From Gammaproteobacteria bacterium (GTDB taxonomy: Bacteria > Pseudomonadota > Gammaproteobacteria > GCA-001735895), in NCBI GenBank assembly GCA_029862125.1, contig JAOTXY010000001.1, positions 26,025-90,024 on the forward strand: a stretch of DNA of 64,000 nt. Direction: 5' to 3'. The translations under genes and the position numbers were made by a program. Below are positions 20,068 to 42,190 of the stretch, in pieces; positions within the stretch are counted from its first letter, which is position 1; the number at the start of each line of letters is the position of its first letter. The notes beneath the pieces are model-generated. The model was not told the origin of the DNA, made no database searches, and saw only the letters and a program-made list of their open reading frames with translations.

Positions 20068-20094
20068 TAAACTAATCTTAATTGTGACCGATAA
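20068..20094 (+). promoter_or_regulatory. Sigma-28 (FliA)-like promoter
   Basis: TAAA-N15-ACCGATAA versus consensus TAAA-N15-GCCGATAA, about 106 bp upstream of the kinase gene. Confidence 0.6.
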
Positions 20095-20200
20095 CTATAT
20101 ATAGAGTTATTGCGGCATATTGGATTTTCGCAACAGGCAGAGGCGCACGGGCCAAATCAATAACCAATAGCGTCATTCTATTGATAAACCGATTTAAATT

Positions 20201-22045
20201 ATGCATCTGAATCAACGTTTTGGCTTGACCATGATTATCGCGACCCTGCTGGTCATGGTTGCGACTGTCTATCTCCTGTTCGACTTTCAGCGTAACAATC
20301 GCGAGGATATGGCACGCGCCCAGGGCCTTGAATTAGCACGCCTTTTGAGCGGCATGTCATGGAGTGAGCTGGTACCGCAAGCAGGCAGAAAGGGGCTACT
20401 CGCAGTGCTTAAGCAAGGACAAAGCAACCCCGACTTTGCTTATGGCGCGGTGGTTGACATCGATGGCAAGGTCGCAACCGAGGTCACTCGTTCGGACGTC
20501 ATCGTGCCTGTCGGTGATATTATCAACGAACCAACCGGCTGGTTAGGACAACGTGTTCTCTCCGCGAATGACGCCGCTAGCCAGGTTAAATTTATCGAAA
20601 CACATGCCCCGGTATTTGACCAGGGTGTGCATATGGGTTTTGTACGGCTTGGATATTTCCGACCCGGTTTCAGTTTCAGCTACTACGAAATGCCATTTCT
20701 GGCGTCTGTGATGCTGCCGATATTCCTGCTGGTACCTTTCTTTTACTTCATGCTACGCCGCGAAATCAAACCGCTTAAAGACATCAGCGAGCGATTTGAA
20801 AATATAGCCGAGCAGGGAGGTTTAACCCAGATCGAAATGCCTCCAAGCCAGGCATTGAACGATTTCATGGAGCAGGTCAGCGACTACATCGATGCTACCC
20901 AAACCCGGATCGAAGTGTTAAACCAGGAACACGAAGATCTGACGATGTCGAGCAAGTTGCTGACCTATAAAAATAATCGCGTCGACGCCATCCTGCAGAA
21001 TTTTCCCGACGCCATCATGGTGATCGACGAAGCCGGCGAAGTCAGTTACGCCAACGCTAAAGTTGAACGTTTGCTCGGGATTGATGCCGAAGCAATGCTC
21101 GGCAAGAAAACCCGCGAGTGGTGCAAAGATCCGCAGATTATCCCGCTACTGACTTTCGGTGACGTCAAATCGAACCTGCAGGCCAACCAGGATACGGTTC
21201 AGGTCAGGCTGGATGATAACAGTGAAAAATCTCTACAGTTCAGTGTCTACCCGTTGTTCACGCCAAACAATGAGAGCAAAATCCTGGGCCGCCTGGTAGT
21301 TATCTGCGACGTATCCGAGAGCCACGAGATGCGCCAGCGCCAGAACGAATTTATCTCGCATATCTCGCATGAACTAAAAACACCGCTCAGCGTGCTGTCG
21401 ATGTACAGCGAATCGCTTTTGACCGAGGGCTCCGACGATGAAGCCTACCGCATCGAGGCGGTGAACGTGATTCATGACGAGGTCGAACGGCTGTCGACCC
21501 TGATCAATAACCTGCTCGCAATCAACCAATACGAACTCGGTGGGGTCATCGCGCAGCGTAATCATGTGCGCTTACACGAGTTTCTCGAGGATGCGTTTGA
21601 AAATATCACCAAGGCCAGGGGTATCAAAGATCTTGAGTTCGACCTCGATATTCCGCGTGAAATGAGCATGGTTTATATCGATAAGGATTTATTCCGAATA
21701 GCAGTAAATAACCTGCTGACCAATGCGATCAAGTACAGCAAACCTGGTGGCAAAGTCAGCATGAGCGCCAGTGAAAACGAAGACAGCATCGAAATCGTGG
21801 TCAGCGATGAGGGTTATGGCATCGCCGAGACCGATATAAAGCAGATATTTAATAAATTTTTCCGCTCAACGGACAAAAACATCAGAAATCAGACCGGGCA
21901 TGGCCTGGGCCTGTCGTTGGCGCGCCAGATCGTGTTAATGCACCACGGCGACCTGACCTGTAGCAGTGAACTCGGCAAGGGTAGTCGCTTTGTTATTCAA
22001 CTGGAGAAGGTTTCGACACAGATTATGGATGCCGCCGCGTCATGA
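20201..22045 (+). CDS. Membrane sensor histidine kinase (TM-periplasmic-TM, PAS, HisKA, HATPase)
   Basis: Two TM segments, PAS (DAIMVIDEAGEVSYAN), H-box SHELKTPL, N-box NLLTNAIKY, G-boxes DEGYGI and GHGLGL. Confidence 0.92.
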   Translation: MHLNQRFGLTMIIATLLVMVATVYLLFDFQRNNREDMARAQGLELARLLSGMSWSELVPQAGRKGLLAVLKQGQSNPDFAYGAVVDIDGKVATEVTRSDVIVPVGDIINEPTGWLGQRVLSANDAASQVKFIETHAPVFDQGVHMGFVRLGYFRPGFSFSYYEMPFLASVMLPIFLLVPFFYFMLRREIKPLKDISERFENIAEQGGLTQIEMPPSQALNDFMEQVSDYIDATQTRIEVLNQEHEDLTMSSKLLTYKNNRVDAILQNFPDAIMVIDEAGEVSYANAKVERLLGIDAEAMLGKKTREWCKDPQIIPLLTFGDVKSNLQANQDTVQVRLDDNSEKSLQFSVYPLFTPNNESKILGRLVVICDVSESHEMRQRQNEFISHISHELKTPLSVLSMYSESLLTEGSDDEAYRIEAVNVIHDEVERLSTLINNLLAINQYELGGVIAQRNHVRLHEFLEDAFENITKARGIKDLEFDLDIPREMSMVYIDKDLFRIAVNNLLTNAIKYSKPGGKVSMSASENEDSIEIVVSDEGYGIAETDIKQIFNKFFRSTDKNIRNQTGHGLGLSLARQIVLMHHGDLTCSSELGKGSRFVIQLEKVSTQIMDAAAS

Positions 22046-22431
22046 ATAAAATTTTAATCGCAGACGATGAACCGCATGTACTGCGGGTACTGAAACTCTC
22101 GCTCGAGAAAGAGGGCTACGCGGTGGAAACCTGTGCCAACGGCAAGGAGGCCCTCACCCAGCTCGAACAGCAACATCCCGATATCCTGATTACCGATATC
22201 CAGATGCCGCAGATGACCGGCGAGGAATTGTGTCGGCATATCAAGCAGCATATGCCCGAGCGCAAATTCCTGATTTTCGTACTCACCTCGCGCACCGAAA
22301 TCGAACACCGCGAGTGGTCACGCGATATCAACAATTTACTGTTTCTCGAAAAACCGGTCAGCATCCGCAACCTGTTGGAAAAGATCGAGGGTTACTTTTC
22401 TGGAGCATCCGATAGTTGGAGGGCATCCTGA
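22042..22431 (+). CDS. Single-domain response regulator (REC)
   Basis: ILIADDE, ITDIQMP (phospho-Asp), LTS, KP; ATGA overlap with the kinase gene. Confidence 0.92.
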   Translation: MNKILIADDEPHVLRVLKLSLEKEGYAVETCANGKEALTQLEQQHPDILITDIQMPQMTGEELCRHIKQHMPERKFLIFVLTSRTEIEHREWSRDINNLLFLEKPVSIRNLLEKIEGYFSGASDSWRAS

Positions 22432-24629
22432 TGGCTACCGTGCCTGACAGCAGCGTTCATTTTGATCATTATCTTACCCTGCTGAAGGGTTTTTGCCCGG
22501 ATGTGCGGGCGATGGTCGTGTTCGATCACGAGCAAAGTTGCATCTGGCAGGGCGACGCCAGTCCCCTTGATCTGGATCAGGTGGTACCCCAGCTGAAGTC
22601 ATTCCGTGCAGGTGACAGCGATGACGTACGGGTAACACTTGGCGACAACGCTAGCCTCGAGCTGATCAACCTGAGAAACACACACGGGGAAATAGCGCTA
22701 ACCCTGGGTATCGAGGCCGTGGACAAGACTGTACAAGCGGTGGCGGCGAACCAAAATATTGGCTTGCTGAATGAATTTTTACTGGCTGACTACGAACAAA
22801 GCCTGGCGCTCGCGACCAAGGAAGACGAGCTCAACCATATGACCGACGAGCTCACCCGACGTTACGAAGAACTCAACCTGATCTACAAGGCCGAGGACCA
22901 GGCGCTCAATATTTACCATGGACGCGAACTGTTGCGACAGCTGGTGATGAATACATCGCGTTTCCTTAACGTCGATATTATTTTTCTCTACATCGCGGGC
23001 AAAAATATCGCGATGCATAAATACAAAAACGATAATCCGTTGTTCGAATCGGACAAACTGTTTGACTATCTGCGTGACTCGGTTTACCCGTTACTCGAAA
23101 CCGATCCGCAGTCCCTCGTCATCAACCATATCGAAGACGCCAGAATGCATAATTTCACCCAGAATACGCCGTACAAACATGTCGTCAGCCCGGTCGTCAA
23201 CGCCGAAAATCAGGTTATCGGACTGCTCGCGATTGCGAGCCAGAATTTCAGTGTTGATTTCTCCAATAGCGATCGAAACCTGCTCGACGTGATGTCGAAA
23301 AAGGCCTCCAAGATCGCCCAGTCCCATTTCGATCCCTTAACTGGGCTTGAAAATAGCAACAGTTTTGAACTCATCATCAAGGATTTGTTAAAACAATCTT
23401 CGGGTACAGATGTTAACCACGCCATCGCTAATGTTGACATTGATCGTATGGCGGTGGTGAACGATATCAGCGGACGCGATGTGGGTGATCTGTTGATTAA
23501 GAAGGTTGGGCAGAAACTCGCCAGCATGGTGCGCTCGCGCGATGTGGTGGCGCGCATCGGTAGCGACAAGTTCGGAGTGTTACTGGAAAATTGCGATTTG
23601 CCGACAGCACAAATCGTCATGAAAAAAATTTCCCATGCGGTCTCTGCCATAGATTTTAAATGGGAGGGCGAGTCACACGAAATCAGCGTCAGTATCGGTA
23701 TCGCCCCGATCACCGCCGAAACGCAGTCGGTGACCAGCCTCATGAATGCTGCCGAAACTGCGCGTAACGTGAGCAAGGAACGTGGTCGTAACAGCATCCA
23801 TGTGCTCGATCTGGAAGACAGCAATTTACTGGAGCGCAAGGACCAGATTCGCTGGGTTGGGCTAATTCAGGCAGCGTTGCGCGAAGACCAGTTCATGCTG
23901 TATGCGCAATTGATCAAGCCTTTAAAGACAAAAACGGCTAAACCACATTACGAACTACTGTTACGTATGCGGGGTAATGATGGCAGTGTAATTCCACCTG
24001 GGAAGTTTCTGCCCGCCGCAGAAAACTTTTACCTGATGTCGAGCATTGATTACTGGGTGATCGGCCAGGCTTTCAGCGAGCTAGCCAAGCATAACCGGGA
24101 ATCCGGACAGGGATGTGAGGTCTCGATCAACCTGTCGGGACAGTCGCTGAGCGACCCGGTCGGTTTTGCCGCTTATATTGGTAATAAACTCGAGCAACAT
24201 CAGTTGGACCCTAGTGATATCTGTTTCGAAATTACCGAGTCATCTGCGATCGAAAATATTGATGATGCCCGCTTTTTTATCGATCAGGTAGGAGCTTACG
24301 GTTGTCAGTTTTCACTCGACGATTTTGGCACCGGCCTCAGTTCCTTTGCCTACCTCAAAAACCTTAAAGTCAGTTACCTGAAGATCGATGGCAGCTTCGT
24401 TACCGACATCGTCACAGACCCGGTCAGCGAGAGCATGGTCTCGGCGATCAACCAGGTGGGGCATGCAATGCAGTTGCAAACGATTGCCGAATTCGTCGAA
24501 AACGATGCGATTGCGCAAAAGCTTGTCGACATCGGTGTCGATTATGGACAGGGTTATGGTTTCGGCAAGCCCGTACCATTCGATGAAATCCTATCCTCGC
24601 TGCCGAGCTCGAAATCGAAGTCGGCGTAG
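22431..24629 (+). CDS. GAF-like + degenerate GGDEF + EAL protein (probable c-di-GMP phosphodiesterase)
   Basis: DPLTGL precedes a GGDEF domain whose motif reads GSDKF (degenerate); the EAL domain keeps ELLLR, SINLS, FEITE, DDFGTG, KIDGSF, AEFVE, QGY. Confidence 0.88.
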   Translation: MATVPDSSVHFDHYLTLLKGFCPDVRAMVVFDHEQSCIWQGDASPLDLDQVVPQLKSFRAGDSDDVRVTLGDNASLELINLRNTHGEIALTLGIEAVDKTVQAVAANQNIGLLNEFLLADYEQSLALATKEDELNHMTDELTRRYEELNLIYKAEDQALNIYHGRELLRQLVMNTSRFLNVDIIFLYIAGKNIAMHKYKNDNPLFESDKLFDYLRDSVYPLLETDPQSLVINHIEDARMHNFTQNTPYKHVVSPVVNAENQVIGLLAIASQNFSVDFSNSDRNLLDVMSKKASKIAQSHFDPLTGLENSNSFELIIKDLLKQSSGTDVNHAIANVDIDRMAVVNDISGRDVGDLLIKKVGQKLASMVRSRDVVARIGSDKFGVLLENCDLPTAQIVMKKISHAVSAIDFKWEGESHEISVSIGIAPITAETQSVTSLMNAAETARNVSKERGRNSIHVLDLEDSNLLERKDQIRWVGLIQAALREDQFMLYAQLIKPLKTKTAKPHYELLLRMRGNDGSVIPPGKFLPAAENFYLMSSIDYWVIGQAFSELAKHNRESGQGCEVSINLSGQSLSDPVGFAAYIGNKLEQHQLDPSDICFEITESSAIENIDDARFFIDQVGAYGCQFSLDDFGTGLSSFAYLKNLKVSYLKIDGSFVTDIVTDPVSESMVSAINQVGHAMQLQTIAEFVENDAIAQKLVDIGVDYGQGYGFGKPVPFDEILSSLPSSKSKSA

Positions 24630-24635
24630 ATAATC

Positions 24636-26717
24636 GTGTCCGACGCGAATATAGTCAGTATTGAAGAAGGCTTAAGCCCGGGAACGGTCACTAAAAACCG
24701 GGTCGGGGCAATGACCCATCTGTTCCCGCGTGGAAATCTGACCGACCCCGAATTGCTGGACGCGTTAAGTGCGGCGGTCGACGAAAGCATTGCCAGCCAG
24801 GAAGTACAGTTGATCATCGACATGGTGAGCGTATCCCTGATCGACAGCAAAGCCCTCGAATCCCTGTTTGACCTGCGCCAGGACCTTGCCAGGGCCGGTG
24901 GCTGGTTGAAAGTCACCAATGCCAAGCCGCTGATCCGTGACATATTCCTGGTAACCGGCCTGGACCAGGTCATCGATATCGTCAACAGTTTTAATATCGA
25001 TAAACCCGAGGTGGTCAGGCCTGACACGACCAGCAGCGAGGGTATTCGCATAGGTGATCTGCTGGTTAACAAGGGACTGCTATCCAAGGAAAAAGTCGAA
25101 GAGGCGATCGTACTGCAGAAAAAGAGCGGTAAGCGTCTGGGGCAGATTATCGTCAGCAAGGGCTGGGTCAGCGAAGACGTTTTCCTGACCGCACTCGGTG
25201 AACAGTTGGGGATTCCCCACATTGTTATGCGCCAGGGACTGGTTGATCACGACGTTTTTACCCAGCTAGAGTTAGAGGTGTCACAAAGACTCAAGGTGGT
25301 ACCGATGTTCCTGGTGCACGGTGAGCTTACATTGGCGACGTCGGATCCACAGGCCATTGCCAGTTTCAGCGAAATCGAAGAGCGGCTGGACTGCAAGATC
25401 CGCCCGGTACTGGTTCGCAAAAGCGACATCGTCAAGAGCCTGAACGAAGCTGGTTCCGGCAGTATCTACGATGCCGAGAATCTCGAGGATCTCGACGACG
25501 ATTTCGAGTTTATCGACAACACGCCTCCGGATGATTATACCGGAATCGATGAAATGGCAGCGGGTAGCCCGGTCATCAACATGGTGAATTCGATTATTCA
25601 ACGCGCGGTGCACGACAAGGTCAGCGATATCCACATCGAGCCCTCGCAAAAAAAGTGTCGCGTGCGGTTCCGCATCGACGGTTTGCTGTACGAAGTCATG
25701 ACGCCGCGTATCGAGCTGCACCCGGCCCTGGTGTCTCGCCTCAAGGTTATGGCCAACCTCGATATCGCCGAACGCCGCATGCCACAGGATGGTCGCATCC
25801 AGGTGCATACCCAGGGACGCTCGGTAGACCTGCGCTTCAGCTCCCTGCCCGGGTTACACGGGGAAAAAGTGGTGCTGCGCGTACTCGACAAGAACCAGTC
25901 AATTCTCGATATCGAAAAACTCGGTATGCAGGAACCCAATGTCATTACCTACAAGCGCCTGCTGGATCGCAGTTACGGCTTGATCCTCGTCACCGGGCCC
26001 ACCGGTAGTGGTAAAACCACGAGCCTGTACTCGGCGATTAACTATCTCAACAGCCTCGAAAAAAACATCGTCACCATCGAGGACCCGGTCGAATACCAGC
26101 TCGATATCGTCAACCAGAACCCGGTGCGCGAAAATATCGGCCTGAGCTTTGCCAAGATGCTCAAGCACGTACTGCGCCAGGACCCCGACGTGGTCATGGT
26201 CGGTGAAATACGTGAACGTGAAACCGCGGAAATCGCGGTGCAGGCGGCCCTGACCGGGCACCTGGTGTTGTCCACGCTGCACACCAACGACAGCATCGGC
26301 GCGGTCACGCGCATGATCGACATGGGGGTCGAACCTTACCTGCTGTCCTCGGCCCTGATAGGTGTGGTCGCGCAGCGCCTGGTGCGCTCGATCTGCCCCA
26401 ATTGCAAGACCGAGTTTCTGGCGAGCCCCGAGATGATCGAGAAATACGGCTGGCAGGACCAGGGCAAGGTGCGCCTGTCCAAGGGCCGCGGCTGTGCCGA
26501 ATGCTACGATGCCGGCTATCGCGGGCGTATGGGTATCCACGAAATTATCGAAACCAATCCCGAGCTGCAGCGCCTGATCATCGCCAACGCGTCGCGCGAT
26601 GAACTCACCGATTATCTGAACCAGCACGAGATCAAGCTGTTGTTCGATGATGGTATCGATCGCGTGCGCGAAGGCCAGACCACGATTGAAGAAATCTGGC
26701 GCGCGGTCAACAGCTAG
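24636..26717 (+). CDS. Type IV filament assembly ATPase (PilB/MshE/GspE family) with N-terminal STAS and MshEN domains
   Basis: STAS-like N-terminus (LIIDMVSVSLIDSKAL...IFLVTGL); tandem MshEN motifs RIGDLLVNKGLL...Q and RLGQIIVSKGWV...Q; Walker A GPTGSGKTT, LRQDPDVVMVGEIR, two CxxC pairs. Confidence 0.93.
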   Translation: MSDANIVSIEEGLSPGTVTKNRVGAMTHLFPRGNLTDPELLDALSAAVDESIASQEVQLIIDMVSVSLIDSKALESLFDLRQDLARAGGWLKVTNAKPLIRDIFLVTGLDQVIDIVNSFNIDKPEVVRPDTTSSEGIRIGDLLVNKGLLSKEKVEEAIVLQKKSGKRLGQIIVSKGWVSEDVFLTALGEQLGIPHIVMRQGLVDHDVFTQLELEVSQRLKVVPMFLVHGELTLATSDPQAIASFSEIEERLDCKIRPVLVRKSDIVKSLNEAGSGSIYDAENLEDLDDDFEFIDNTPPDDYTGIDEMAAGSPVINMVNSIIQRAVHDKVSDIHIEPSQKKCRVRFRIDGLLYEVMTPRIELHPALVSRLKVMANLDIAERRMPQDGRIQVHTQGRSVDLRFSSLPGLHGEKVVLRVLDKNQSILDIEKLGMQEPNVITYKRLLDRSYGLILVTGPTGSGKTTSLYSAINYLNSLEKNIVTIEDPVEYQLDIVNQNPVRENIGLSFAKMLKHVLRQDPDVVMVGEIRERETAEIAVQAALTGHLVLSTLHTNDSIGAVTRMIDMGVEPYLLSSALIGVVAQRLVRSICPNCKTEFLASPEMIEKYGWQDQGKVRLSKGRGCAECYDAGYRGRMGIHEIIETNPELQRLIIANASRDELTDYLNQHEIKLLFDDGIDRVREGQTTIEEIWRAVNS

Positions 26718-26732
26718 GAACCGGGATAAAGC

Positions 26733-27854
26733 ATGGCGATTAACACCAGACAGCACGCGCTCGTGGCACAGGCATCAACCTCGTTGCCCGTGTCAAAACC
26801 AAAATTTCAGCTCAAGCAGGCCGTCGGTGACAAGGAACGCCGCTTCTTCACCGAGCAAATGTCTTTACTGCTGGAGACCGGCACCCCGCTACAGCAGAGC
26901 CTGCAGGCAATGAAAAAGCAGATTGAAAACCCGGCGATGCTCGAGCTGCTCGATCAACTCATCGACGATATCGCCCAGGGCGTACAGTTTTCGACCGCGC
27001 TGGCCAAGCATCCCACGGTTTTCTCCACCACCTATACCAACCTGGTTGCGGCGAGCGAGGAAGGTGGTTTCATGCACGAAGTACTGCAACAGCTGCTGGC
27101 CCTGGACGAGAAACGCGAAGAGTTGCGCAAGACCATGGTTTCGGCGCTGTCATACCCGGTATTCCTGCTGGTGTTTGCGTTGGCCGTAGTGGTGTTCGTG
27201 CTGGTGGTGGTGTTTCCGAAGTTTGCCGACCTGTTTTCGCAAATCCAGGACCAGTTACCCGTGACCACCAAATTCCTGATGGCCACCAGCAATGTTTTGA
27301 AAGATCACTGGATCGAGTTGACCGTTGGGCTGGTGGTGTCGATCGGCGGTTTCAAGTTCTGGTCCGCGACCGAAAACGGCATCCGCAAGCTCGACTGGGC
27401 CAAATTGAATTTCCCGCTGCTGCGGCACATTTTCGTCCAACTTTACCTGGTCAATACGATGCGGGTGTTGAGCATGTCGCTCGGCAACGGTGTGGGCATG
27501 ATGGATTCGCTGCATGCCTGCAAGTTTGTCGTTAAAAACAGCCTGTTCCAGGAATTTATCGGGCAGGTCGAAAACCAGGTCGAAACCGGCAACGGTATCG
27601 CCGCGGGCTTTCAGAATACCAGTTTCATTCCGCCGATCGTCGAACAGATGATCAGTACCGGCGAAGAAACCGGAAATTTACCTAAAGTTATGAGCCGCCT
27701 GGCCGATTATTTTGAAGGCGAGCTTTCCAGCAAGCTGCAAACCCTGTCGCGACTCGCAGAACCGGTCATGTTGCTGATTATGGGGGGTGTCGTGGGATTG
27801 ATCGTAAGTTCGCTGATATTGCCGATTTTCAAACTAACCCGGGTCGTTGGGTGA
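26733..27854 (+). CDS. Inner-membrane platform protein (PilC/GspF family)
   Basis: Two T2SSF-type domains (SEEGG, ALSYP; GEETGNL, AEP) with TM segments. Confidence 0.92.
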   Translation: MAINTRQHALVAQASTSLPVSKPKFQLKQAVGDKERRFFTEQMSLLLETGTPLQQSLQAMKKQIENPAMLELLDQLIDDIAQGVQFSTALAKHPTVFSTTYTNLVAASEEGGFMHEVLQQLLALDEKREELRKTMVSALSYPVFLLVFALAVVVFVLVVVFPKFADLFSQIQDQLPVTTKFLMATSNVLKDHWIELTVGLVVSIGGFKFWSATENGIRKLDWAKLNFPLLRHIFVQLYLVNTMRVLSMSLGNGVGMMDSLHACKFVVKNSLFQEFIGQVENQVETGNGIAAGFQNTSFIPPIVEQMISTGEETGNLPKVMSRLADYFEGELSSKLQTLSRLAEPVMLLIMGGVVGLIVSSLILPIFKLTRVVG

Positions 27855-27871
27855 GGAAAATCAATAGTTTA

Positions 27872-27887
27872 TGTTAATTGAATCACG
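27872..27887. promoter_or_regulatory. Possible CRP/Vfr-type site upstream of the major pilin gene
   Basis: TGTTA-N6-TCACG (8/10 match to TGTGA-N6-TCACA) in an AT-rich gap, with TATACT at 27927-27932. Confidence 0.3.
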
Positions 27888-27964
27888 GTTTTCAGCGATG
27901 CAGGCAAAAATTTGAAATATCGTGACTATACTCAAAAAAGCTAGATTTACTTGAATTTTAAAGG

Positions 27965-28546
27965 GTGAGAAAAATGCAACCAATCCGCAACGCAATCCAG
28001 AAGGGATTTACCCTCGTCGAACTGTTGATCGTGGTTATCATACTGGCGCTGCTGGCTGCCATCGTGGTGCCGCAGTTTGCGTCTTCCACCGATGACGCCA
28101 AGCTCGCATCGCTGGATACCACGCTAGGTAACGTGCGTTCCTCGATCGACCTGTACTTTCAGCAACACGGTGAATACCCGGGTGCGCTGACCGCGGTAGA
28201 CGCGGCCTGTGCTGACACCACTGGTACCGGCACCGGTGGTGCGGGTGCACAAGGCGTGCAGGCCTTTGCCGACCAGATGAGTCTGTATACCGACGCCGAT
28301 GGTGGCGCCTGCAGCGTCAAGGATGCCAACTTCAAATTCGGGCCCTATCTCAAGAAGGCAACGCTGCCTGCCAATCCGATCACCACAGTGGCCACGCTCG
28401 AAGTGATCAATACCGGCGACCTGGTGATGGCCGGAAGCGGTGCCAACCTCGGCTGGAAGTACGATATCGTGGTCGGCAAGTTTATTGCCAACGATACCAC
28501 CGACCCGGATGGCGCTGGTCCCGAAGTTTCCTACGACCAACGCTAG
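27965..28546 (+). CDS. Major type IV pilin / GspG-like pilin
   Basis: Class III signal peptide KG/FTLVELLIVVIILALLAAIVVP; IDLYFQQHGEYP; FGPYLKK...NP; one Cys pair. Start is GTG 27965 or ATG 27974. Confidence 0.9.
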   Translation: MRKMQPIRNAIQKGFTLVELLIVVIILALLAAIVVPQFASSTDDAKLASLDTTLGNVRSSIDLYFQQHGEYPGALTAVDAACADTTGTGTGGAGAQGVQAFADQMSLYTDADGGACSVKDANFKFGPYLKKATLPANPITTVATLEVINTGDLVMAGSGANLGWKYDIVVGKFIANDTTDPDGAGPEVSYDQR

Positions 28547-28557
28547 ATTGAAACAGT

Positions 28558-29142
28558 GTGTGTCTCGGGCGTTACCCCCAGGTTATAAAACGTAACACGC
28601 AGGCTGGCTTCAGCCTGCTGGAAATCTCTATCGTAGTACTCATCCTGGGGATCATGGCCATCGTCGTGATCCCCGATTCCGCTCCCGGCAACCAGCAAAA
28701 ACTCGATCTCGCCGCAAGCCAGATTGCGCAGGCGCTGCGCTTTGCGCACCGCGAGGCTTTGCGCACCGGCGAACATCATGGCGTCACCATCAGCCAGGTC
28801 ACGCAAACCATCACGGTCAAAAAATGGGACATGACGACCGACCCGGTCAGCACCGAGCTGATACCTTACCACCCGGTCAACAAGCAGAGTTTCGTCTTCG
28901 ATGCCGATACCATGAGTCTTGCCCCGGGCGTGTCGATCATCAACAGCAGTGATATTTTCAACTACATCAGCATCGGGCGTCGGCGTAGCCTGATCTTCGA
29001 CCCGCAAGGCGTGCCGGTGTGGGTGCTCGGTTCCGACGACAGCGTTTACCGTCTGCTCGACGGGATCGTACAACTCAGCGATGGCCAGAACCGGCGCGAC
29101 ATCGCGGTCGCACCGCTGACTGGCAGGGTGATGGTTAAATGA
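28558..29142 (+). CDS. Minor pilin (FimT/GspH-like)
   Basis: AG/FSLLEISIVVLILGIMA; LRFAHREAL; ends TGRV. True start is probably a few codons downstream. Confidence 0.85.
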   Translation: MCLGRYPQVIKRNTQAGFSLLEISIVVLILGIMAIVVIPDSAPGNQQKLDLAASQIAQALRFAHREALRTGEHHGVTISQVTQTITVKKWDMTTDPVSTELIPYHPVNKQSFVFDADTMSLAPGVSIINSSDIFNYISIGRRRSLIFDPQGVPVWVLGSDDSVYRLLDGIVQLSDGQNRRDIAVAPLTGRVMVK

Positions 29143-29561
29143 AACAACGGCAAGCGGGTTTCTCCTACCTGGAACTGCTGATCGCGACCCTGCTGATCGT
29201 GATCATGCTGGTGCCGGCGCTCGACGCTATGCAAAGCGGTATCCAGGGCAGTGGCATCCATACGCAACTGGCGCAGAACCAGTATCGAATGATCTCGAAG
29301 ATGGAAGAGACCCTGGCGCTGCCGTTTGCGCAGTTACTGGAACAGGCTGACCTGGTCGCCGACCCGACCGTGTTGATACCCGCACCCTTTTCTGATCCCG
29401 CAGGTACCGAATCCCGCCGCCTTGTGTTTCTGGCGCGTTACGATGGCGACAACGCCGATGGTAACGACAATCCGTTTAATGGTACCGATGAGGGTTTGCT
29501 GTGGGTACGGATTACGATCGAAAACAGCCCGCGTGCGCTGGAGACCGTGATCGTTGAATAG
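29139..29561 (+). CDS. Minor pilin (PilV/GspI-like)
   Basis: AG/FSYLELLIA class III signal; ATGA overlap with the previous gene. Confidence 0.85.
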   Translation: MKQRQAGFSYLELLIATLLIVIMLVPALDAMQSGIQGSGIHTQLAQNQYRMISKMEETLALPFAQLLEQADLVADPTVLIPAPFSDPAGTESRRLVFLARYDGDNADGNDNPFNGTDEGLLWVRITIENSPRALETVIVE

Positions 29562-35513: not shown

Positions 35514-35581
35514 AGGGCGATTGAATTGTCAATTTGCCGGGTTATGAACTATATAAATAGCGAATTTGGTTAAAATTAAAA

Positions 35582-36808
35582 ATGAAAATAAATATTCCCA
35601 AACAAATACGTTCGGTATGGTCGAGTACGCACTATGATTCGCCCGAGCTGACGCGCTTTGCCCGACGCAAAGCGGTTGCGGAGGCGCGCAAGGGGCTGGC
35701 GGCGATGAGTATATTGACCATGGGGATTTTACTGATCGAAGGCACGCTCTATGTCAAGTTTGCGCTCGACCCGATGTACCTCTACACCTGCGCGATCCTG
35801 GTGTTGTTGTCGCTCAATATGGTGTTTGCCTCGCGCACCGTCGGCGATCCCCAGGCATTGCATTTACTCGGTGTCACGCTGCTGGCGGTCTCCGGTAGCG
35901 CTTTTATATTACTGGCGCACTACCAGCATGTTTTTCACCCGATGTTGTTTGCCAGTGTCGCGATGCTGTTCATTGTGATACCGATGATGTCCTGGGGCCT
36001 CGGCGAAGCGCTCGCGGTGACGCTGCTGATCTATACCATGTTTACCCTGTCGACGCTGGAGGCCAATTATAATTTTGCCGATCAAAGCCTGTGGACCTTG
36101 CAATTCATTATGCTCGGCGCGAGCACGGTCAGCTTGTCGCTGGTGGTGCGCAACGTCAGGCTACGCAAGCACGACGTCAAAGCCCAACACGACCTGGTGG
36201 TCGCGCATGCGCAGATCACGGATTTGTCAAATCGAGATCCGTTAACGAGTGCCTGGAATCGACGCTATTTTGACCTCGAATTCGAGCAATACCTGAAGCA
36301 GTGTCGTGAAAATCAAAATCAATTCCATTTCATGCTGCTCGATGTCGACGATTTCAAGCTGATCAACGATGATTGCGGGCACGAAAGCGGCGACCAGGTG
36401 CTCAAGAATATCGGTCAGGCGTTTAGTAGTGTAATCGACGACCATGGCAGCCTGGTACGCATGGGGGGTGATGAATTCGCAGTGATTTTCGCCGACCTCG
36501 ATCCCAAGGTTATTGCGATTCGGGGATTGAAAATATTCTGTGATTTAAATGCTGCGAGTAAATATGACCTGATAAAGCAGGCAAGCCTCAGCATCGGAGT
36601 CGCTAGTGTGCCGCCTGATATCGAAGTCAGCTATCGCCAGCTTTACAAACAGGCAGACCTCGCGCTTTACCGGGCAAAAGCGCTAAAAGATAATAATCCT
36701 GCACCACCGAATATTGTCATCAGTATTTTGCACGACCCCGATGATGTTCTCAGCAGTACTCGAAGTTTGTGGAAAATGCCGGAAAGCGTTAGCAAGGCCG
36801 CCAACTAG
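35582..36808 (+). CDS. Membrane-bound diguanylate cyclase
   Basis: Multiple N-terminal TM helices, DPLT, DVDDFKLIND..GH..GD, intact RMGGDEF, no RxxD I-site. Confidence 0.9.
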   Translation: MKINIPKQIRSVWSSTHYDSPELTRFARRKAVAEARKGLAAMSILTMGILLIEGTLYVKFALDPMYLYTCAILVLLSLNMVFASRTVGDPQALHLLGVTLLAVSGSAFILLAHYQHVFHPMLFASVAMLFIVIPMMSWGLGEALAVTLLIYTMFTLSTLEANYNFADQSLWTLQFIMLGASTVSLSLVVRNVRLRKHDVKAQHDLVVAHAQITDLSNRDPLTSAWNRRYFDLEFEQYLKQCRENQNQFHFMLLDVDDFKLINDDCGHESGDQVLKNIGQAFSSVIDDHGSLVRMGGDEFAVIFADLDPKVIAIRGLKIFCDLNAASKYDLIKQASLSIGVASVPPDIEVSYRQLYKQADLALYRAKALKDNNPAPPNIVISILHDPDDVLSSTRSLWKMPESVSKAAN

Positions 36809-36892
36809 GCGCGTCTGTTTTATCACCTGATTGTTAATGAATCGGCGCTTGCTGCCGATCTATTGACTAATTACCGATTCGGATGCCTCCGT

Positions 36893-37756
36893 ATGAGCAA
36901 TCAATGGGAAAAGGTCACCATCCAGGCCAACCTGGTGACGTTGCCGGATATCTACTGGCAACTCAAGGAAATTCTCGATAGCCACGACTACTCGATGCAG
37001 GACGTGGCGCAATTAATCGTCTACGACCCGGGATTGACGGCGCGCATGTTGCGCATCGTCAATAGTGCTTATTTCGGCTTCGCCGCTAAGATTGATACTG
37101 TCACTCATGCGGTTTCGATTCTCGGAGTGCAACAAATCCGTGACCTGGTGTTAGCGACAGCGATTGCCGATGCGCTCGGCGACTACGAATGCGAACATCT
37201 TGACGTCAAGCAATTCTGGCTGCGCAGTGTTTATCGCGCGATTGCCGCGCGTAACCTGGCGGGCGTCTGCAGCCTGATGGACGGTGAGCGCATGTTTGTG
37301 GCGGGCCTGTTGAGCGGCGTCGGTCACCTGATCATGTACCAGTCGATACCGGTACTGGCGCAGCAGGCACAGCGCGAGGCCGAGGCCAACGGAAAACCGC
37401 TGCATCGGGTCGAGCGCGAAGTGATTGGTTTCGATCATGCCAGGGTGGCGAGCGGGTTGATGAAGAACTGGCAGCTGCCTGACAGCCTGGTTGCGGTGAT
37501 CGAGCATCACCTGGAACCGGACCCGGCGGCAGATTACCTGCTCGATACCGCGATTGTGCATATCGCCGCTTTGATTGGTGAGGCGTTTGCGCAAAATCGG
37601 CCACTGGACGAGGTTTTGGTGAATGTAGATGGCCATGCCTGGGATGCCACCGGGCTCGATATCGGCCGCTGCGAAGCCGTCGATGTCGAGGTTTCCGAGC
37701 AGTTAAACAGCGTCGTCAACATGTTATTTCCGAAACTGCAACGTGCAGCGGGATAA
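36893..37756 (+). CDS. HDOD-domain protein
   Basis: LPDIY, DPGLTARMLRIVNSAYFG, AVSILG, FWLRS, FVAGLL, GFDHA, WQLP. ATG 36893 chosen. Confidence 0.88.
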   Translation: MSNQWEKVTIQANLVTLPDIYWQLKEILDSHDYSMQDVAQLIVYDPGLTARMLRIVNSAYFGFAAKIDTVTHAVSILGVQQIRDLVLATAIADALGDYECEHLDVKQFWLRSVYRAIAARNLAGVCSLMDGERMFVAGLLSGVGHLIMYQSIPVLAQQAQREAEANGKPLHRVEREVIGFDHARVASGLMKNWQLPDSLVAVIEHHLEPDPAADYLLDTAIVHIAALIGEAFAQNRPLDEVLVNVDGHAWDATGLDIGRCEAVDVEVSEQLNSVVNMLFPKLQRAAG

Positions 37757-37911: not shown

Positions 37912-37938
37912 TCAATATAACTGGTTTTTAGCCGATAA
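37912..37938 (+). promoter_or_regulatory. Sigma-28 (FliA)-like promoter
   Basis: TCAA-N15-GCCGATAA with a perfect -10 element, 37 bp upstream of pilM. Confidence 0.65.
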
Positions 37939-37975
37939 AGGACTATAAACGGTGTAATGTCCCGCATATAAGTCC

Positions 37976-39109
37976 ATGACAATACTACAAAAACTCAAAC
38001 GTAAAGCCGTATCCCAGGCAAAACCGGTCGGCCCCGGTTTGATTGGGCTCGATATTGGCAGCAATCAGATTCATTTATGCCAGATTCGTCCACTCGAACA
38101 TGGATTGTTTTCGATCATTGCCAAGGCCTCGATTGAGTACTCGGGTGGGCGCGATGCCCTGTTGGCTAAGCCTAAGAAACTCAAGAAGCTGATCGCGCCG
38201 GAACTGAAGAAAAAAAAATTCAAAGGTAAACGTGTTGCGGCGTTGATGCCCTGGGAAGATGTCAAAATTATCCTGCTGACCTACAAGGCCAACGTTTCCG
38301 ATGTTGATAGTGAAGTCGTAAAAATGCTGGCTAAACGCATCGAGGGGTCGATCGATGATTACGTCGTCGACTATGTTCCGGTGCGATCCAACCCGTCGGA
38401 CGAAGAGCACATGGTGGTCGCCACACTCGCAAAGCGGGAAGCCGTGGATACGCTGTTGCACACACTGATTAGCTGTGGACTCGAAGTCGACTCACTCGAT
38501 ATAGCACCGACGGCATTGCGTCGTATCGTCAGCGCCTTATACACCGGGCACGCTGCCGACAATGTGTTGATGATTAATACCTATCGCAATGAGTCCTACC
38601 TGACCGTGATATCGGGGCGCAGGTTGTTGTTCAATCAAGCGGTACCATTCGGAGAAACCCTGTTGCTCGAGACTATCGCGCGTGAACTTGACATATCGAT
38701 CGAATCAGCACGTGCGCAAATTATTGATCATGGCCTCGAAAAGCAGGCGCAGTCACTTGCGGTCGGCTCCGATTTGGAAACCAACGTATCGGCGACCTTG
38801 CTCGAAATCGTCAAACCCTGCTTTCTCGATTTAATCAATGAAATCAACCGGGTCCTGGTATTTACCGCCTCGGAAACGCATGGCGTACCGGTAAGCCGAA
38901 TCTGTCTGCTGGGATGCATTGCCCAATGGCCGGGCGCACAACAGGTATTGCTGTCACTACTTGATTTCGACGCGCCCGACGGTCAAACCGAATTCACCCA
39001 GGTGTTCCAGGATGAAAACGAAGATACCCGTATTCCCTGGGAAGGTCTTTTCTCTGAAATTTCGATCGCGATGGGGCTTGCGTTAAGGGGGCTGGTGGCG
39101 AATGAGTGA
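37976..39109 (+). CDS. pilM: Type IV pilus alignment protein PilM-like
   Basis: Actin-like IGLDIGS motif, VVDY, LDIAPTAL, C-terminal IAMGLALRG. Confidence 0.82.
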   Translation: MTILQKLKRKAVSQAKPVGPGLIGLDIGSNQIHLCQIRPLEHGLFSIIAKASIEYSGGRDALLAKPKKLKKLIAPELKKKKFKGKRVAALMPWEDVKIILLTYKANVSDVDSEVVKMLAKRIEGSIDDYVVDYVPVRSNPSDEEHMVVATLAKREAVDTLLHTLISCGLEVDSLDIAPTALRRIVSALYTGHAADNVLMINTYRNESYLTVISGRRLLFNQAVPFGETLLLETIARELDISIESARAQIIDHGLEKQAQSLAVGSDLETNVSATLLEIVKPCFLDLINEINRVLVFTASETHGVPVSRICLLGCIAQWPGAQQVLLSLLDFDAPDGQTEFTQVFQDENEDTRIPWEGLFSEISIAMGLALRGLVANE

Positions 39110-39758
39110 AATAGACCTGTTCCCCGAAGACCTGCGCAAGCGCCTGCTGTTCGTGAGCTGGTTCAAATTAAGCGGTTATGCGATCGTCCTGTTAACGATA
39201 GTGTTTGTGGTCGCTTTTATATTGCTACGCGAGGCGAACGCGCAAATCGATGAGCAGATTCAGCACTTCCAGTCGCAGCGCGAAATCACCAACGCCAACC
39301 GTCAGCAACTGGAACAACTCAACCAGCAAAAGAACGATCTGAAGCAACAGCTGGACCTGCTGACCGGGTTGCGCAGTGGGGCCTCGGCCGAACAGATGAT
39401 GCTGATGATCGATCGCGCGTTGCCCGGGTCTGATGTCTGGCTCACCAACTGGAAATTTCGTCGTGCCGGCACCCCGGTGGGTGATGCCCGGGAAGAGGTC
39501 AATACGGGTTACTTTATCGTGATTGCAGCCGATAACAGGAACAATCAGGAAGAAACCTGGAAGATCGAGACCAAGATGAAGATTCAAGGGCAGGCCCTGG
39601 ACCACGTCGCGATGTCGAAATTTGTATTAAACCTGACGCAGCAGCCGGAGATCGAAAACGTACGTATCGTCAGTTCGCGTCAGACAGAGGTCAACCGCAT
39701 CAAGCTGGTCGATTTCAATCTCGAAATCGTGGTTTCCGCGAGGTACGGGACCAGCTAA
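39102..39758 (+). CDS. pilN: PilN-like protein
   Basis: IDLFP variant of the INLLP motif, single TM, coiled coil, DVWLT; overlaps pilM. Confidence 0.78.
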   Translation: MSEIDLFPEDLRKRLLFVSWFKLSGYAIVLLTIVFVVAFILLREANAQIDEQIQHFQSQREITNANRQQLEQLNQQKNDLKQQLDLLTGLRSGASAEQMMLMIDRALPGSDVWLTNWKFRRAGTPVGDAREEVNTGYFIVIAADNRNNQEETWKIETKMKIQGQALDHVAMSKFVLNLTQQPEIENVRIVSSRQTEVNRIKLVDFNLEIVVSARYGTS

Positions 39759-40330
39759 TGCAGGATTTTTTTGAAAATGCTCAACCGCGGGTCGTTGCCA
39801 TGATGCTGATTGGCGTGGTGCTGTTGATTGCCCTGGTCGAGGCAACTTACCTGCTGTTGCCACAGGCCAAAACTTACCGTGAGCTTCATTCCAGCCACCA
39901 AATGCTGAAGCGGGCGGTCAGCAACAGCGATAGTCTCAACGACCAGTTGCAAAAGATCGATAATGAGGTAAAGAAATTGTCCCGTCAGCTGCATGGCGAT
40001 ATGGCGCAACTGCCGGTCAAGCAGATGGAATCTTTTGTCATCGGACGTTTGCAAAAGGTTTCCTGGGCCACCGATGTCGAACTGATGAGTGTGCAGCCCG
40101 GTAGTGGGAGTCAAGTGCAAAATTTTCGGGAGCGCCTGTTCGAGGTCAAGCTGAATGCGCGCTATCACGATTTCTTCGAATGGTTACAGATCGTTAACGA
40201 CGAGTTGGGCTATATCGTGGTCAAGAAGTTTGAAATTAATCCAAATGACCGTGACGCGATTAAGAATCCGAAACTGGACCTGACACTGACACTGGTGTCG
40301 TATCGCATGGAGCAAAAGTATGACTCCTAA
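39758..40330 (+). CDS. pilO: PilO-like protein
   Basis: N-terminal TM, coiled coil, LP motif, YHDFFEWL; follows pilN. Confidence 0.75.
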   Translation: MQDFFENAQPRVVAMMLIGVVLLIALVEATYLLLPQAKTYRELHSSHQMLKRAVSNSDSLNDQLQKIDNEVKKLSRQLHGDMAQLPVKQMESFVIGRLQKVSWATDVELMSVQPGSGSQVQNFRERLFEVKLNARYHDFFEWLQIVNDELGYIVVKKFEINPNDRDAIKNPKLDLTLTLVSYRMEQKYDS

Positions 40331-40685
40331 ACTACCTGTTTACCTGTTAGCGTTGTGGGCGCTCGCTACTGCTTCGGCATTCGGCGCAGAATCCGCGATC
40401 CTGGGTCTGAGCAATAATCCGTTCAGCCGGCCCGAGATATTCAATGCACCGCCACCGCCTCCGGCCAGTCAGGCAGACGTGTTGCCGCCCGAGCAAGTAG
40501 AGCTCAACCTGACCGCAACCATGGTTTCTGAAATCGCGCCGATGGTGATTGTCGACGGTGAGCTGTTGGCCATCGGTGACAAGATAGAGGGTCTGAAATT
40601 AATTGCGGTCAAGGAGGGCGAAGCAATTTTTACCCGCGCTGGCAAGAAATATTCCTTCGAGATAAAAAAGCAGGGGCAGAAATGA
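40320..40685 (+). CDS. Small exported PilP/MshK-like protein
   Basis: Signal peptide, NPF followed by a Pro-rich linker, then a beta-domain (LTATM...IVDGELLAIGDKIEG); between pilO and the secretin gene. Confidence 0.6.
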   Translation: MTPKLPVYLLALWALATASAFGAESAILGLSNNPFSRPEIFNAPPPPPASQADVLPPEQVELNLTATMVSEIAPMVIVDGELLAIGDKIEGLKLIAVKEGEAIFTRAGKKYSFEIKKQGQK

Positions 40686-40733
40686 AGCGGGCCGAATTGA
40701 AATTCGAAGACGTAGGCCTCGATCCCGCTACGA

Positions 40734-40833
40734 GTCATCCCCGCGCAAGCGGGGATCTTGAAATGGCTCCTGGTTGCAAGATTCCAATAAGTCAACCCAG
40801 CGTGCGCTGGGGGGCCACGTGCGCGGAAATGAC
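40734..40833. repeat. REP doublet at the secretin 5' end
   Basis: Left half GTCATCCCCGCGCAAGCGGGGATCTTG; right half CAAGATTCC...CGTGCGCGGAAATGAC interrupted by a small hairpin (CCCAGCGTGCGCTGGG). Confidence 0.75.
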
Positions 40834-42184
40834 TGAAATGGTTATCTTTAGATACCGGTTGTTGCCGTTGCTTATGCTGCTTATCCTTTTGGCGATAACG
40901 CCAAACGCGCAAGCCGGCAAGATATCGCTCTCTGTCGATGAGCTCGATATCCGCGAGGTGATGCAGATGCTGTCGCGCGAGCAACGCATGAACATATTTG
41001 TTGCCGATGGAGTCAGCGGTGATGTCTCGGTTAATCTTTATGACATGGACACGGCCGAGGCGGTAAAGCTGATTGCCGAATCCGCTGGTTTCGTGGTCGA
41101 GCAACGTAACGACAGTTTTTTTATTATCGAACGCGATGACGCCGGCAAACTGCGGCAAAGCGACAGCCTCGAAGTGCGCGCCTTCAAGATACAGTATGCC
41201 TCGACCGGCGAGGTCGAAACCATCCTGCAGGAATATGTTTCCGAGTTGGGCAACATCAAGGCATTGGAAGAAAACAATATGCTCGTGATCGAGGACTTGC
41301 CATCCTTCCTCGATAAAATGGAAACGCTGCTCGGTGAAATCGATCGCGAGCCGAAACAGATCATGATCGAGGCCAAGATCCTCGAGATCACACTTACCAA
41401 CAACCAGTCCTACGGGCTCGACTGGGCCAAACTGTTCGACAGTTCGGATGGTACCGGCAGTCTGGGTACCCAGGGACTGGCCAATCCGAATTCAGCAGGA
41501 TTGTTTGCGCAATATACCAACAGTAACGTCGACCTGGTGTTGAATGCATTGAAAGAGCGCGGGCGCCTGCGCACGATTTCGACACCGAAGCTGCTCGCCA
41601 TGGAAGGGCTCGAAGCGGAATCGGTGGTCGGTGCTGAAATCGGTTACCAGGTAACAACAACGATCAACAATGTTAGTACCGAGAGTGTCGAATTTCTCGA
41701 GACGGGCGTTATTCTCAAGGTGACTCCGACGGTCGATCGCAGCGGTCGCATCTTGCTCGATATCCTCCCCGAGGTCAGTACCGGCTTCGTCAACGACGAT
41801 GGTATTCCTTCCAAGTCAACCACGCAGGTGTCAACGCACATGCTGGTACCTGACGGTAAAACCGTGTTTCTAGGTGGCCTGATTCAGAACCAGGTCAATA
41901 ATACCCGCGAGGGAATTCCTGGTTTGGGCGATGTGCCGATTATCGGCGGGCTGTTTTCGAACCGATCGCAGAATATTGTCAGTACCGAAATCGTGGTGCT
42001 GATCACGCCGCGCATTGTCGATTACGCCAACGACGAGCCCAGAGTACCGGCGATCGACCGCGTCGAACTCATTAACGAAATCATCGATGCGGAGCTGGAC
42101 AACACCGAGAAGGACCTGGCAAAAACCTTCGACGGCGAATCCTCAACAGGCACGCCCGACGACTTCGGCGGTAATAGAAAGTAA
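40829..42184 (+). CDS. Outer-membrane secretin (PilQ/GspD/MshL family, short form)
   Basis: Signal peptide ending AQA, N-domains, QIMIEAKILE, STPKL, TGVILKVTP, IPGLGDVPIIGGLF, VLITPRIV. Start ambiguous (40682, 40829 or 40838). Confidence 0.9.
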   Translation: MTEMVIFRYRLLPLLMLLILLAITPNAQAGKISLSVDELDIREVMQMLSREQRMNIFVADGVSGDVSVNLYDMDTAEAVKLIAESAGFVVEQRNDSFFIIERDDAGKLRQSDSLEVRAFKIQYASTGEVETILQEYVSELGNIKALEENNMLVIEDLPSFLDKMETLLGEIDREPKQIMIEAKILEITLTNNQSYGLDWAKLFDSSDGTGSLGTQGLANPNSAGLFAQYTNSNVDLVLNALKERGRLRTISTPKLLAMEGLEAESVVGAEIGYQVTTTINNVSTESVEFLETGVILKVTPTVDRSGRILLDILPEVSTGFVNDDGIPSKSTTQVSTHMLVPDGKTVFLGGLIQNQVNNTREGIPGLGDVPIIGGLFSNRSQNIVSTEIVVLITPRIVDYANDEPRVPAIDRVELINEIIDAELDNTEKDLAKTFDGESSTGTPDDFGGNRK

Positions 42185-42190
42185 TTCCTG

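Follow-up and report, generated by a model that had tools for sequence, protein, structure and literature searches.

Only a handful of type IV filament types have been distinguished, and these have been defined largely from cultured pathogens. In one of them, the mannose-sensitive haemagglutinin (MSHA) pilus, the MshM and MshN genes lie between those for the secretin and the ATPase, PilM and PilN are fused as MshI, and the Vibrio locus is headed by MshH/CsrD, a degenerate-GGDEF/EAL gene. In V. cholerae, binding of cyclic di-GMP (c-di-GMP) to the ATPase MshE stimulates extension of the MSHA pilus, which is retracted by PilT, encoded at another place in the genome (PMC7096442). In a 2026 study, MshQ is put forward as the MSHA counterpart of PilY1, and MshD, MshO and MshP are aligned with GspI, GspJ and GspK (PMC13533445). 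Denise et al. (2019) left 884 'generic' type IV filament systems unassigned. The stretch analysed here, a 64,000-nucleotide window of gammaproteobacterial DNA (GenBank assembly GCA_029862125.1, contig JAOTXY010000001.1, positions 26,025 to 90,024; all coordinates below are those of the window), carries at positions 20201-42184 a block of type IV filament and signalling genes whose motor, platform and secretin form a separate lineage, labelled X. There is a probability of about 60% that these genes specify a type IV filament machine that depends on a secretin and represents a distinct, conserved lineage, and that it functions as an adhesive pilus with c-di-GMP-gated assembly.

The block consists of 17 co-oriented open reading frames (ORFs), all on the plus strand and many with overlapping stop and start codons. 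Pfam and NCBIfam profile searches of these ORFs recovered all the parts that the original prediction had listed, from the histidine kinase through to the secretin. None of the core proteins reaches an NCBIfam equivalog cut-off. The assembly ATPase (24636-26717), a STAS-MshEN-T2SSE protein, scores 575.4 bits with GspE (cut-off 630.25) and 570.7 bits with PilB (TIGR02538; cut-off 675.65), and the inner-membrane platform protein (26733-27854), with two T2SSF repeats, scores 275.5 bits with GspF (cut-off 424). The short secretin (40682-42184; Pfam Secretin and Secretin_N) scores 210.9 bits with PilQ (TIGR02515; cut-off 284.35), 186.2 bits with GspD (cut-off 351.35) and 143.9 bits with MshL (TIGR02519; cut-off 250.2), compared with 250-293 bits for true MshL proteins, found in 47 of 121 genomes. 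Its true start is likely at ~40829, since relatives align from residue ~73. The major pilin obtains 48.4 bits with GspG (cut-off 88.85), and the PilM-like protein 67.8 bits with NCBIfam pilM (cut-off 133).

Reference proteins for the phylogenies came from sampled Gammaproteobacteria only and were labelled by NCBIfam cut-offs, the MSH ATPases being those that adjoin an MshL above its cut-off. Rows were a random subsample plus a fixed keep-list (91 of 159 for a quick ATPase tree, 66 of 126 for the platform, 71 of 87 for the secretin and 55 of 91 for a careful ATPase tree). ORFs under the length limits, pseudogene L146, and L147 and L196 from an unpublished genome were excluded, as was a long-branched ATPase from contig C99 in the careful tree. 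In the quick ATPase tree all 22 X rows form one clade with support 100 (starred), in a polytomy outside MSH, with PilB (14 rows), GspE (12) and MSH (20) likewise in starred clades. In the careful tree X (12/12), PilB, GspE and MSH (12 rows) each receive 100/100, with a bootstrap that had not fully settled; X is weakly sister to MSH (81/78), and the two are reciprocally monophyletic on stems of ~0.5 each. The platform tree places all 20 X rows at 100 (starred) apart from PilC, GspF and MSH. The secretin tree does the same for 20 of 20 X rows, at 100 (starred), apart from PilQ (100, starred), GspD (95, starred) and 23 MshL or MSH-like rows, and with midpoint rooting X falls beside PilQ and GspD, not MshL. 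Within this sampling the components thus lie outside the canonical MSHA, type IVa pilus (T4aP) and type II secretion system (T2SS) clades. Together with the missed cut-offs, the three separate, fully supported clades bear out the original prediction of a machine distinct from these systems.

The arrangement of the block recurs widely. An ATPase scan with one genome per species gave 79 loci, to which a genome search added two, and 48 species-genome loci contain a full-length ATPase relative (identity of 50% or higher, length of 600 aa or more, alignment start within the first 30 residues). The gene order sought by the original prediction in other genomes is kept in these 48, which rules out a chance arrangement. 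Among loci with enough flanking DNA, the ATPase gene is preceded by the EAL gene in 43 of 44, the receiver gene in 42 of 43 and the kinase gene in 36 of 37, so that the signalling genes are conserved beside the pilus genes; L119 alone lacks these three genes. Downstream follow the platform (41/41 loci), the major pilin (32/34), minor pilins 2 (30/31), 3 (29/31) and 4 (27/29) and the giant protein (27/27). Two loci, L025 and L029, are rearranged: the genes for the major pilin, PilMNO and the secretin precede the kinase gene, and those for the minor pilins and the tip protein have stayed behind the platform gene. In a secretin scan, the near clade showed the distal half of the block (cyclase-HDOD-PilMNOP-secretin); loci further away, among them those of three metagenome-assembled genomes (MAGs) labelled Burkholderiales or Betaproteobacteria, have this half but lack HDOD.

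Of 399 other genomes sampled evenly across the class, 16 carry an ortholog. Judged by their record names, nearly all carriers are symbionts or MAGs of uncultured sediment bacteria, among them Olavius algarvensis Gamma 3, Escarpia and Lamellibrachia endosymbionts, Candidatus Thiodiazotropha, Sedimenticola, Thiogranum, Woeseiaceae and Ectothiorhodospiraceae; a few are labelled Nitrospirota, Rhodospirillales or Burkholderiales. According to a read-archive listing, window 24636-30573 also occurs in sediment DNA runs; no RNA run is listed for it, which speaks neither for nor against expression. In four loci from Planctomycetia and Omnitrophota MAGs (L048, L049, L051, L053), MshEN ATPases ~41% identical to the one described here are adjoined, along with platform and a pilin, by receiver and kinase genes, which suggests that the signalling cassette on such motors reaches beyond Proteobacteria.

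The ATPase and platform genes are followed by pilin genes in the T2SS-like order G-H-I-J-K. The major pilin (27965-28546; Pfam, NCBIfam, sequence and AlphaFold2 (AF2)) carries the class III signal G↓FTLVE, which in the form G↓F(T/S)L(V/I)E is present in 39 of 39 orthologs, and its N-terminus matches GspG. Its AF2 model (pLDDT 89) has no PDB match at E <= 0.001 in Foldseek; the best match in a full-library fold search is the pseudopilin EpsG (Z 5.4, root-mean-square deviation 2.9 Å over 93 residues), followed by PulG (Z 4.4), both weak. Minor pilin 2 (28558-29142) combines an N_methyl match with a weak GspH match. The 140-aa minor pilin 3 (29139-29561) begins with G↓FSYLE and has weak NCBIfam matches only, and the 339-aa minor pilin 4 (29554-30573; Pfam, NCBIfam and sequence) has a long Asp-rich, calcium-binding-like region. 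This region contains a ~130-residue run of DxDxDG-like acidic repeats, which we take to resemble thrombospondin-type calcium sites. The I, J and K assignments of these minor pilins and of the following giant protein are inferred from position alone. The five pilins of the original prediction are therefore four small prepilins, whereas the fifth is a 1647-aa pilin-headed adhesin.

The gene for this giant protein (30570-35513) encodes a hydrophobic N-terminus that is K/PilX-like but lacks Glu5, a pair of DNRLRE/CBM96 domains, one LamG domain and, at the C-terminus, three ~105-aa repeats. Window 32030-34000 (residues ~488-1140) encodes three tandem ~210-aa domains without a Pfam family. For the central repeat, Atlas neighbours are 'hypothetical protein' clusters only, and a sequence search of the PDB with the giant protein gave no match at E <= 0.01. 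Orthologous ORFs range from 457 to 1818 aa among those listed, the conserved core being the N-terminus and the DNRLRE region, and the only similarity to an MSH-locus protein is a LamG-domain match (L112, E 6e-6). Conservation within the locus is lowest for the giant protein and the minor pilins: compared with L016, identity is 94% for the ATPase and 92% for the platform, but 56% for the giant protein and 37% for pilin 3. That the tip proteins diverge fastest fits an exposed adhesin. From its domain composition, the giant protein is predicted to fill the tip-adhesin role of PilY1 or MshQ, with ~1600 aa of lectin-type domains fused to a K-position pilin; K-position pilin and large adhesin thus appear here to be one polypeptide.

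The distal genes supply the scaffold: a PilM-like actin-fold protein (37976-39109; PilM_2 67.5 bits, cut-off 27), a PilN-like protein (39102-39758; 36.1 bits, cut-off 22.8), a PilO-like protein (39758-40330; 33.3 bits, cut-off 22) and a small exported protein (40320-40685) that is PilP-like by position and signal peptide, its Pfam matches being sub-threshold. As originally predicted, the Pfam and NCBIfam scans detected no prepilin peptidase in the block, and no block ORF matches the GspC/L/M or PilY1 families; the sole GspC/L/M-related signal is GspM on the PilO-like protein, at 21.9 of the required 60 bits. None of the 17 ORFs fits the MshM/MshN position between secretin and ATPase, and PilM and PilN are encoded by separate ORFs. 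Judged by its gene content, the T2SS-like G-H-I-J-K cassette on a PilMNOP scaffold is a complete, conserved machine.

Signalling domains are built into the motor itself. The ATPase contains a STAS domain at residues ~26-120 (Pfam STAS, 34.9/22.6 bits) and an MshEN domain (NCBIfam NF053729, 62.4 bits, cut-off 38) with two 24-aa motifs, at residues 137-160 and 166-189, separated by the 5-aa spacer KKSGK. The published MshEN consensus comprises two 24-residue RLGxx(L/V/I)(L/V/I)xxG(L/V/I)(L/V/I)... motifs with a 5-residue gap (PMC11731258); the ATPase motifs fit it with conservative changes and are conserved across 49 sequences. An intact two-motif c-di-GMP site is thus predicted on the motor ATPase. 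Ser71 of the STAS domain is conserved in at least 95% of the 49 ATPase sequences, and no RsbW- or PP2C-type partner gene is detected among the 17 ORFs by Pfam or NCBIfam. A word-based search with the STAS part returned 44 proteins, only close relatives with generic names, and in an exhaustive search most of the matches (446 at E <= 0.001, 66 at E <= 1e-10) were short fragments. In the non-X 'distant' loci, BLAST at E < 0.01, which may be too weak for this purpose, found no separate small STAS ORF.

Upstream of the ATPase gene lie the genes of a putative phosphorelay. The membrane sensor histidine kinase (20201-22045) has two hydrophobic segments around a ~140-aa periplasmic stretch, followed by PAS, HisKA and HATPase_c domains (Pfam). 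The start of the single-domain receiver (22042-22431; Pfam) overlaps the kinase stop codon; its acceptor Asp52, Thr82 and Lys104 are present, and D52 and K104 are invariant in the ortholog alignment. The third protein (22416-24629) has a GAF-GAF-GGDEF-EAL architecture, in which Pfam recognises GGDEF and EAL and matches no GAF domain ahead of GGDEF. The GAF assignment of the original prediction is supported by fold, with residues 6-305 (AF2, pLDDT 82) resembling the tandem-GAF regulators PDE2A, PDE5A and CyaB2 in Foldseek (E ~1e-8). Its GGDEF motif, correctly called degenerate, reads GSDKF and has an RxxD kept five residues upstream. This motif drifts, being GGDEF in ~10 orthologs, GSDKF in the near clade and of other forms elsewhere, while the EAL signatures E(L/I/V)L, DDFG[TSAC]G, K-I-D, E-x-V-E and Q-G are kept in 45 of 45 orthologs. 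The protein is therefore likely a c-di-GMP phosphodiesterase in which the degenerate GGDEF domain has a regulatory role. The reading frames indicate that translation of the kinase, receiver and phosphodiesterase genes is coupled to that of the ATPase gene. The receiver may act on the phosphodiesterase, as the adjacency of the two genes, their overlapping codons and the loss of both in one genus would suggest.

Two further signalling genes follow that of the giant protein. A membrane diguanylate cyclase (35582-36808; Pfam and sequence) has an intact GGDEF motif, as do 20 of 21 orthologs, and the window copy has no RxxD I-site; a stand-alone HDOD protein (36863-37756; Pfam, 198 bits) comes next. 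In the 18 loci with both the giant gene and a full PilM gene, the cyclase directly follows the giant gene in nine, L027 having a shorter GGDEF ORF there, and HDOD is found at its place in five, all near relatives. The cyclase also occurs in loci that end before PilM (L011, L014, L020, L024, L044, L045, L046, L056), as does HDOD (L009, L010, L044, L056). The original prediction that c-di-GMP maker, breaker and receptor are encoded together therefore applies to the family for the EAL breaker and the MshEN receptor, which belong to its core, whereas the cyclase is present at this place in only half of the 18 loci.

A working model can be derived from these predictions. The membrane kinase would sense a periplasmic or PAS-borne cue and phosphorylate the single-domain receiver, which would tune the GAF-GAF-GGDEF-EAL phosphodiesterase. 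The membrane cyclase would supply c-di-GMP, and the balance of cyclase and phosphodiesterase would set its local level. Following the V. cholerae MshE/PilT precedent, from which the same logic is inferred for X, c-di-GMP at MshEN would switch the ATPase to extension, and the STAS domain with its invariant Ser71 may provide an additional, second input. The prepilins would be cleaved by the PilD encoded beside T4aP genes. The filament would be primed by the minor pilins and the giant protein, which would occupy its tip; there the DNRLRE/CBM96 and LamG domains could attach to glycans of a host surface or of particles. Retraction, if any, might be carried out by one of three PilT paralogs encoded elsewhere.

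The assembly (188 contigs, 91% complete) contains five long PilB/GspE-type ATPase genes, one of them in the block, and three PilT-like genes. The PilT-like genes lie on contig C103, while the contig of the block has a single T2SSE gene; the original description of a locus without a retraction motor thus holds for the block but not for the genome. The only A24 prepilin peptidase is encoded on contig C71 beside a PilB above its cut-off (850 bits), so that both pilT and pilD, for which the original prediction had proposed a search elsewhere in the genome, are accounted for. A PilQ above cut-off (529 bits) is found on C180, and an MshL above cut-off together with a second MshL-like secretin on C18; no GspE or GspD was found in the genome at the thresholds used. 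The organism is accordingly predicted to have a canonical T4aP (C71, C180, C103) and one or two MSH-type systems in addition to the X machine. On C18 (L080, L081) two MSH-type loci stand in tandem, one of them with the MshL above cut-off, and the second C18 ATPase belongs to a separate deep clade with genes from G002, G010, G014 and G032. The fifth PilB/GspE-type ATPase (G000:C99:14-1528, L083) lies at a contig edge and has a branch length of 1.29. X and an MshL above cut-off coexist in this genome (G000) and in G011, G058, G073 and G088. In the complete genome G088 (L109/L110, G088:C1:736001-776000), the X locus is followed directly by a canonical MSH locus; this X locus encodes a 747-aa tip protein and neither cyclase nor HDOD.

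Several observations weigh against an adhesive pilus of a separate lineage with hard-wired control. The position of X among the lineages differs by tree, from sister of MSH (81/78) to a polytomy, with gammaproteobacterial references only. The signalling wiring is not obligatory: one genus, that of G011 and G230, has the STAS-ATPase but no kinase-receiver-EAL set, its genomes being devoid of the GAF-GGDEF-EAL protein, and the cyclase is absent from its place in about half of the loci. The action of the receiver on the phosphodiesterase is a candidate step. Finally, the best, albeit weak, fold match of the major pilin is a T2SS pseudopilin, and the E-F-G-H-I-J-K order leaves room for a role in secretion. 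The chief rival explanation, which is considered unlikely, builds on these last points and holds that the machine makes a short, T2SS-like pseudopilus, for protein export or for display of the giant protein, and no long adhesive pilus. The GspG and GspH matches of the first two pilins, the likeness of the major pilin to EpsG and PulG and the lack of a retraction ATPase in the block would all be expected of such a machine, c-di-GMP-binding ATPases associated with T2SS have been reported (PMC4624772), and the Geobacter Pul system is needed for OmpB secretion (PMC3543383). Yet the GspE, F, D and G scores are below cut-off, GspC/L/M are missing, and X falls outside the GspE, GspF and GspD clades. 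The mature major pilin, at ~178 aa, is longer than the solved pseudopilins it matches (112-130 residues), the K-position protein has lectin-type domains typical of adhesins, and the block contains no candidate cargo gene. That X might instead be a divergent, rearranged member of the MSHA family is improbable. The low secretin score, the reciprocal monophyly of X and MSH at 100/100 and the grouping of the X secretin with PilQ and GspD rather than MshL oppose it, as do the separate PilM and PilN genes, the lack of ORFs between secretin and ATPase and the coexistence of both systems in at least five genomes. In its favour are the MshEN domain of the ATPase, a locus headed by a degenerate-GGDEF/EAL gene, an MSH ATPase as the closest in-genome paralog (41% identity), the sister position in the careful ATPase tree and a large LamG protein after the minor pilins, like MshQ (PMC13533445).

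The original prediction had also suggested an acquired island between two C2-substrate catabolic clusters. The flanks were correctly identified, with PbfA (aminoethylphosphonate) on the left and Xsc (sulfoacetaldehyde) on the right, both above NCBIfam cut-offs, but a recently acquired mobile element is very improbable. Such an element could explain why the congener G152 (99% complete) is collinear and runs from Meth_synt_2 straight to a TPP-enzyme gene without ~19.8-42.7 kb, and it would suit the patchy distribution (16 of 399 sampled class members), the few carriers labelled Nitrospirota, Rhodospirillales or Burkholderiales and a GC content of 0.50-0.61 in the block compared with 0.54-0.58 outside. 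Repeats do occur at both ends, as predicted: a REP-like 31-nt inverted repeat at 19841-19923, and REP-like direct repeats at 42185-42727, where two direct ~47-nt copies (42208-42727) flank a 98-aa GIY-YIG nuclease ORF (42269-42565, minus strand). These palindromes were rejected as island borders, the left one included, since the motifs belong to families with 21 (left) and 28 (right) copies genome-wide. A tRNA integration site was likewise rejected, no tRNA being present, and no integrase or transposase family was detected among the 15 neighbouring ORFs scanned. The locus directly follows the same Meth_synt_2 gene in six relatives (L002, L004 (Olavius Gamma 3), L005, L007, L008 and L016), Xsc and GntR are kept after the secretin in L221, L224 and L229, and in the ATPase tree carriers of one named lineage broadly fall together. 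Because of the shared insertion site, the shared right flank, the missing tRNA and the genome-wide repeats, the absence from G152 is read as loss. The locus is most simply read as an old part of the chromosome that is subject to occasional loss, with which in-frame deletion alleles accord. One such allele, on the MAG contig L067:1-3921 and in the metagenome proteins P0004 and P0006 (clusters of 9 and 1 members), joins ATPase residues 1-248 (STAS and MshEN) to secretin residues 173-500; the junction, at ~25379/41208 in the window, removes ~15.8 kb and keeps the kinase, receiver and EAL genes. A second indel was observed at window 10858-18731, which encodes PbfA above cut-off, a DAO oxidoreductase and an ABC transporter. 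This stretch is missing at the same place in G152 (L086) and the Olavius Gamma 3 scaffold (L004) and present in L016, L008 and L007.

In the literature searched, no description was found of a STAS-MshEN ATPase fusion or of the X machine, nor any paper on Thiodiazotropha with type IV or MSHA pili, and the public protein names of X relatives are generic; X-type loci may already be among the supplementary tables of Denise et al. (2019). The broader proposal that X is a fourth major secretin-dependent lineage in Proteobacteria, of the rank of T4aP, T2SS and MSHA, with a two-input motor, a glycan-binding tip and a use in attachment by symbionts and sediment relatives, is tentative and falls somewhat short of even odds. 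If it were true, the motor would integrate c-di-GMP at MshEN with a partner-switch-like signal at the fused STAS domain, the tip would be a modular, fast-evolving, glycan-binding giant pilin, and X would serve chemosynthetic symbionts (those of tubeworms and lucinids and the Gamma 3 symbiont of gutless worms) as well as free-living relatives in sediment for attachment to hosts or particles. The presence of X in these symbionts and in abundant sediment sulfur oxidisers makes it a candidate attachment organelle, possibly acting in symbiont-host or cell-particle contact. The hard-wired circuit would also offer a compact test bed for the gating of a pilus motor by local c-di-GMP and a second input.

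Compared with described systems, X mixes T2SS-style pilins with a T4P-style scaffold and brings its own sensor, c-di-GMP breaker and receptor, and often the maker; to this it adds a STAS domain on the motor, for which no described mechanism was found in the literature searched. With T2SS it shares the E-F-G-H-I-J-K order, GspG- and GspH-like N-termini of the major and second pilins, a K-position protein without Glu5 and the weak fold likeness of the major pilin to EpsG and PulG. It differs in missing all Gsp equivalog cut-offs, in having PilM-N-O-P instead of GspC/L/M, in a secretin gene that comes last, in a K-position protein that is a 1647-aa adhesin and in its putative control by c-di-GMP and STAS. 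T4aP resembles X in PilM, PilN and PilO, detected at Pfam level, in a secretin after PilP and in a short prepilin signal, and the two presumably share PilD. In contrast to T4aP, the PilB and PilQ counterparts of X are below cut-offs and outside those clades, there is no PilY1, and all parts are encoded in a single locus, while the canonical T4aP set of the same genome is spread over three contigs. The atypical Geobacter 'Pul/OxpG' T2SS (Mehta et al. 2006, as cited in PMC3543383) is, by description only, similar in combining pseudopilin-type subunits with a PilM-N-O-P-Q-type scaffold; the account of it in PMC3543383 mentions neither a giant tip pilin nor linked genes for a kinase, a receiver or an EAL protein.

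The MSHA system of V. cholerae comes close in its regulation and tip. Both have an extension ATPase with an MshEN c-di-GMP receptor, a locus without its own retraction ATPase or prepilin peptidase, a GGDEF/EAL gene at the locus head and several minor pilins followed by a very large LamG protein proposed as tip adhesin. In X, however, the secretin is not MshL by score or tree, and ATPase, platform and secretin fall in separate clades. PilM and PilN are unfused, MshM/MshN-position genes are lacking and the gene order is another one; a STAS domain is present on the ATPase, a kinase and a receiver are wired to the locus, and MSH loci coexist with X. In the FimX-PilZ-PilB system of Xanthomonas and Pseudomonas T4aP, a degenerate-GGDEF/EAL protein is likewise functionally tied to the assembly ATPase, and the X receiver and GAF-GGDEF-EAL protein together resemble a split FimX domain order. 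Unlike FimX, the X protein keeps all catalytic EAL signatures, and in place of a PilZ gene, which X does not have, the X ATPase itself is predicted to bind c-di-GMP via its MshEN domain.

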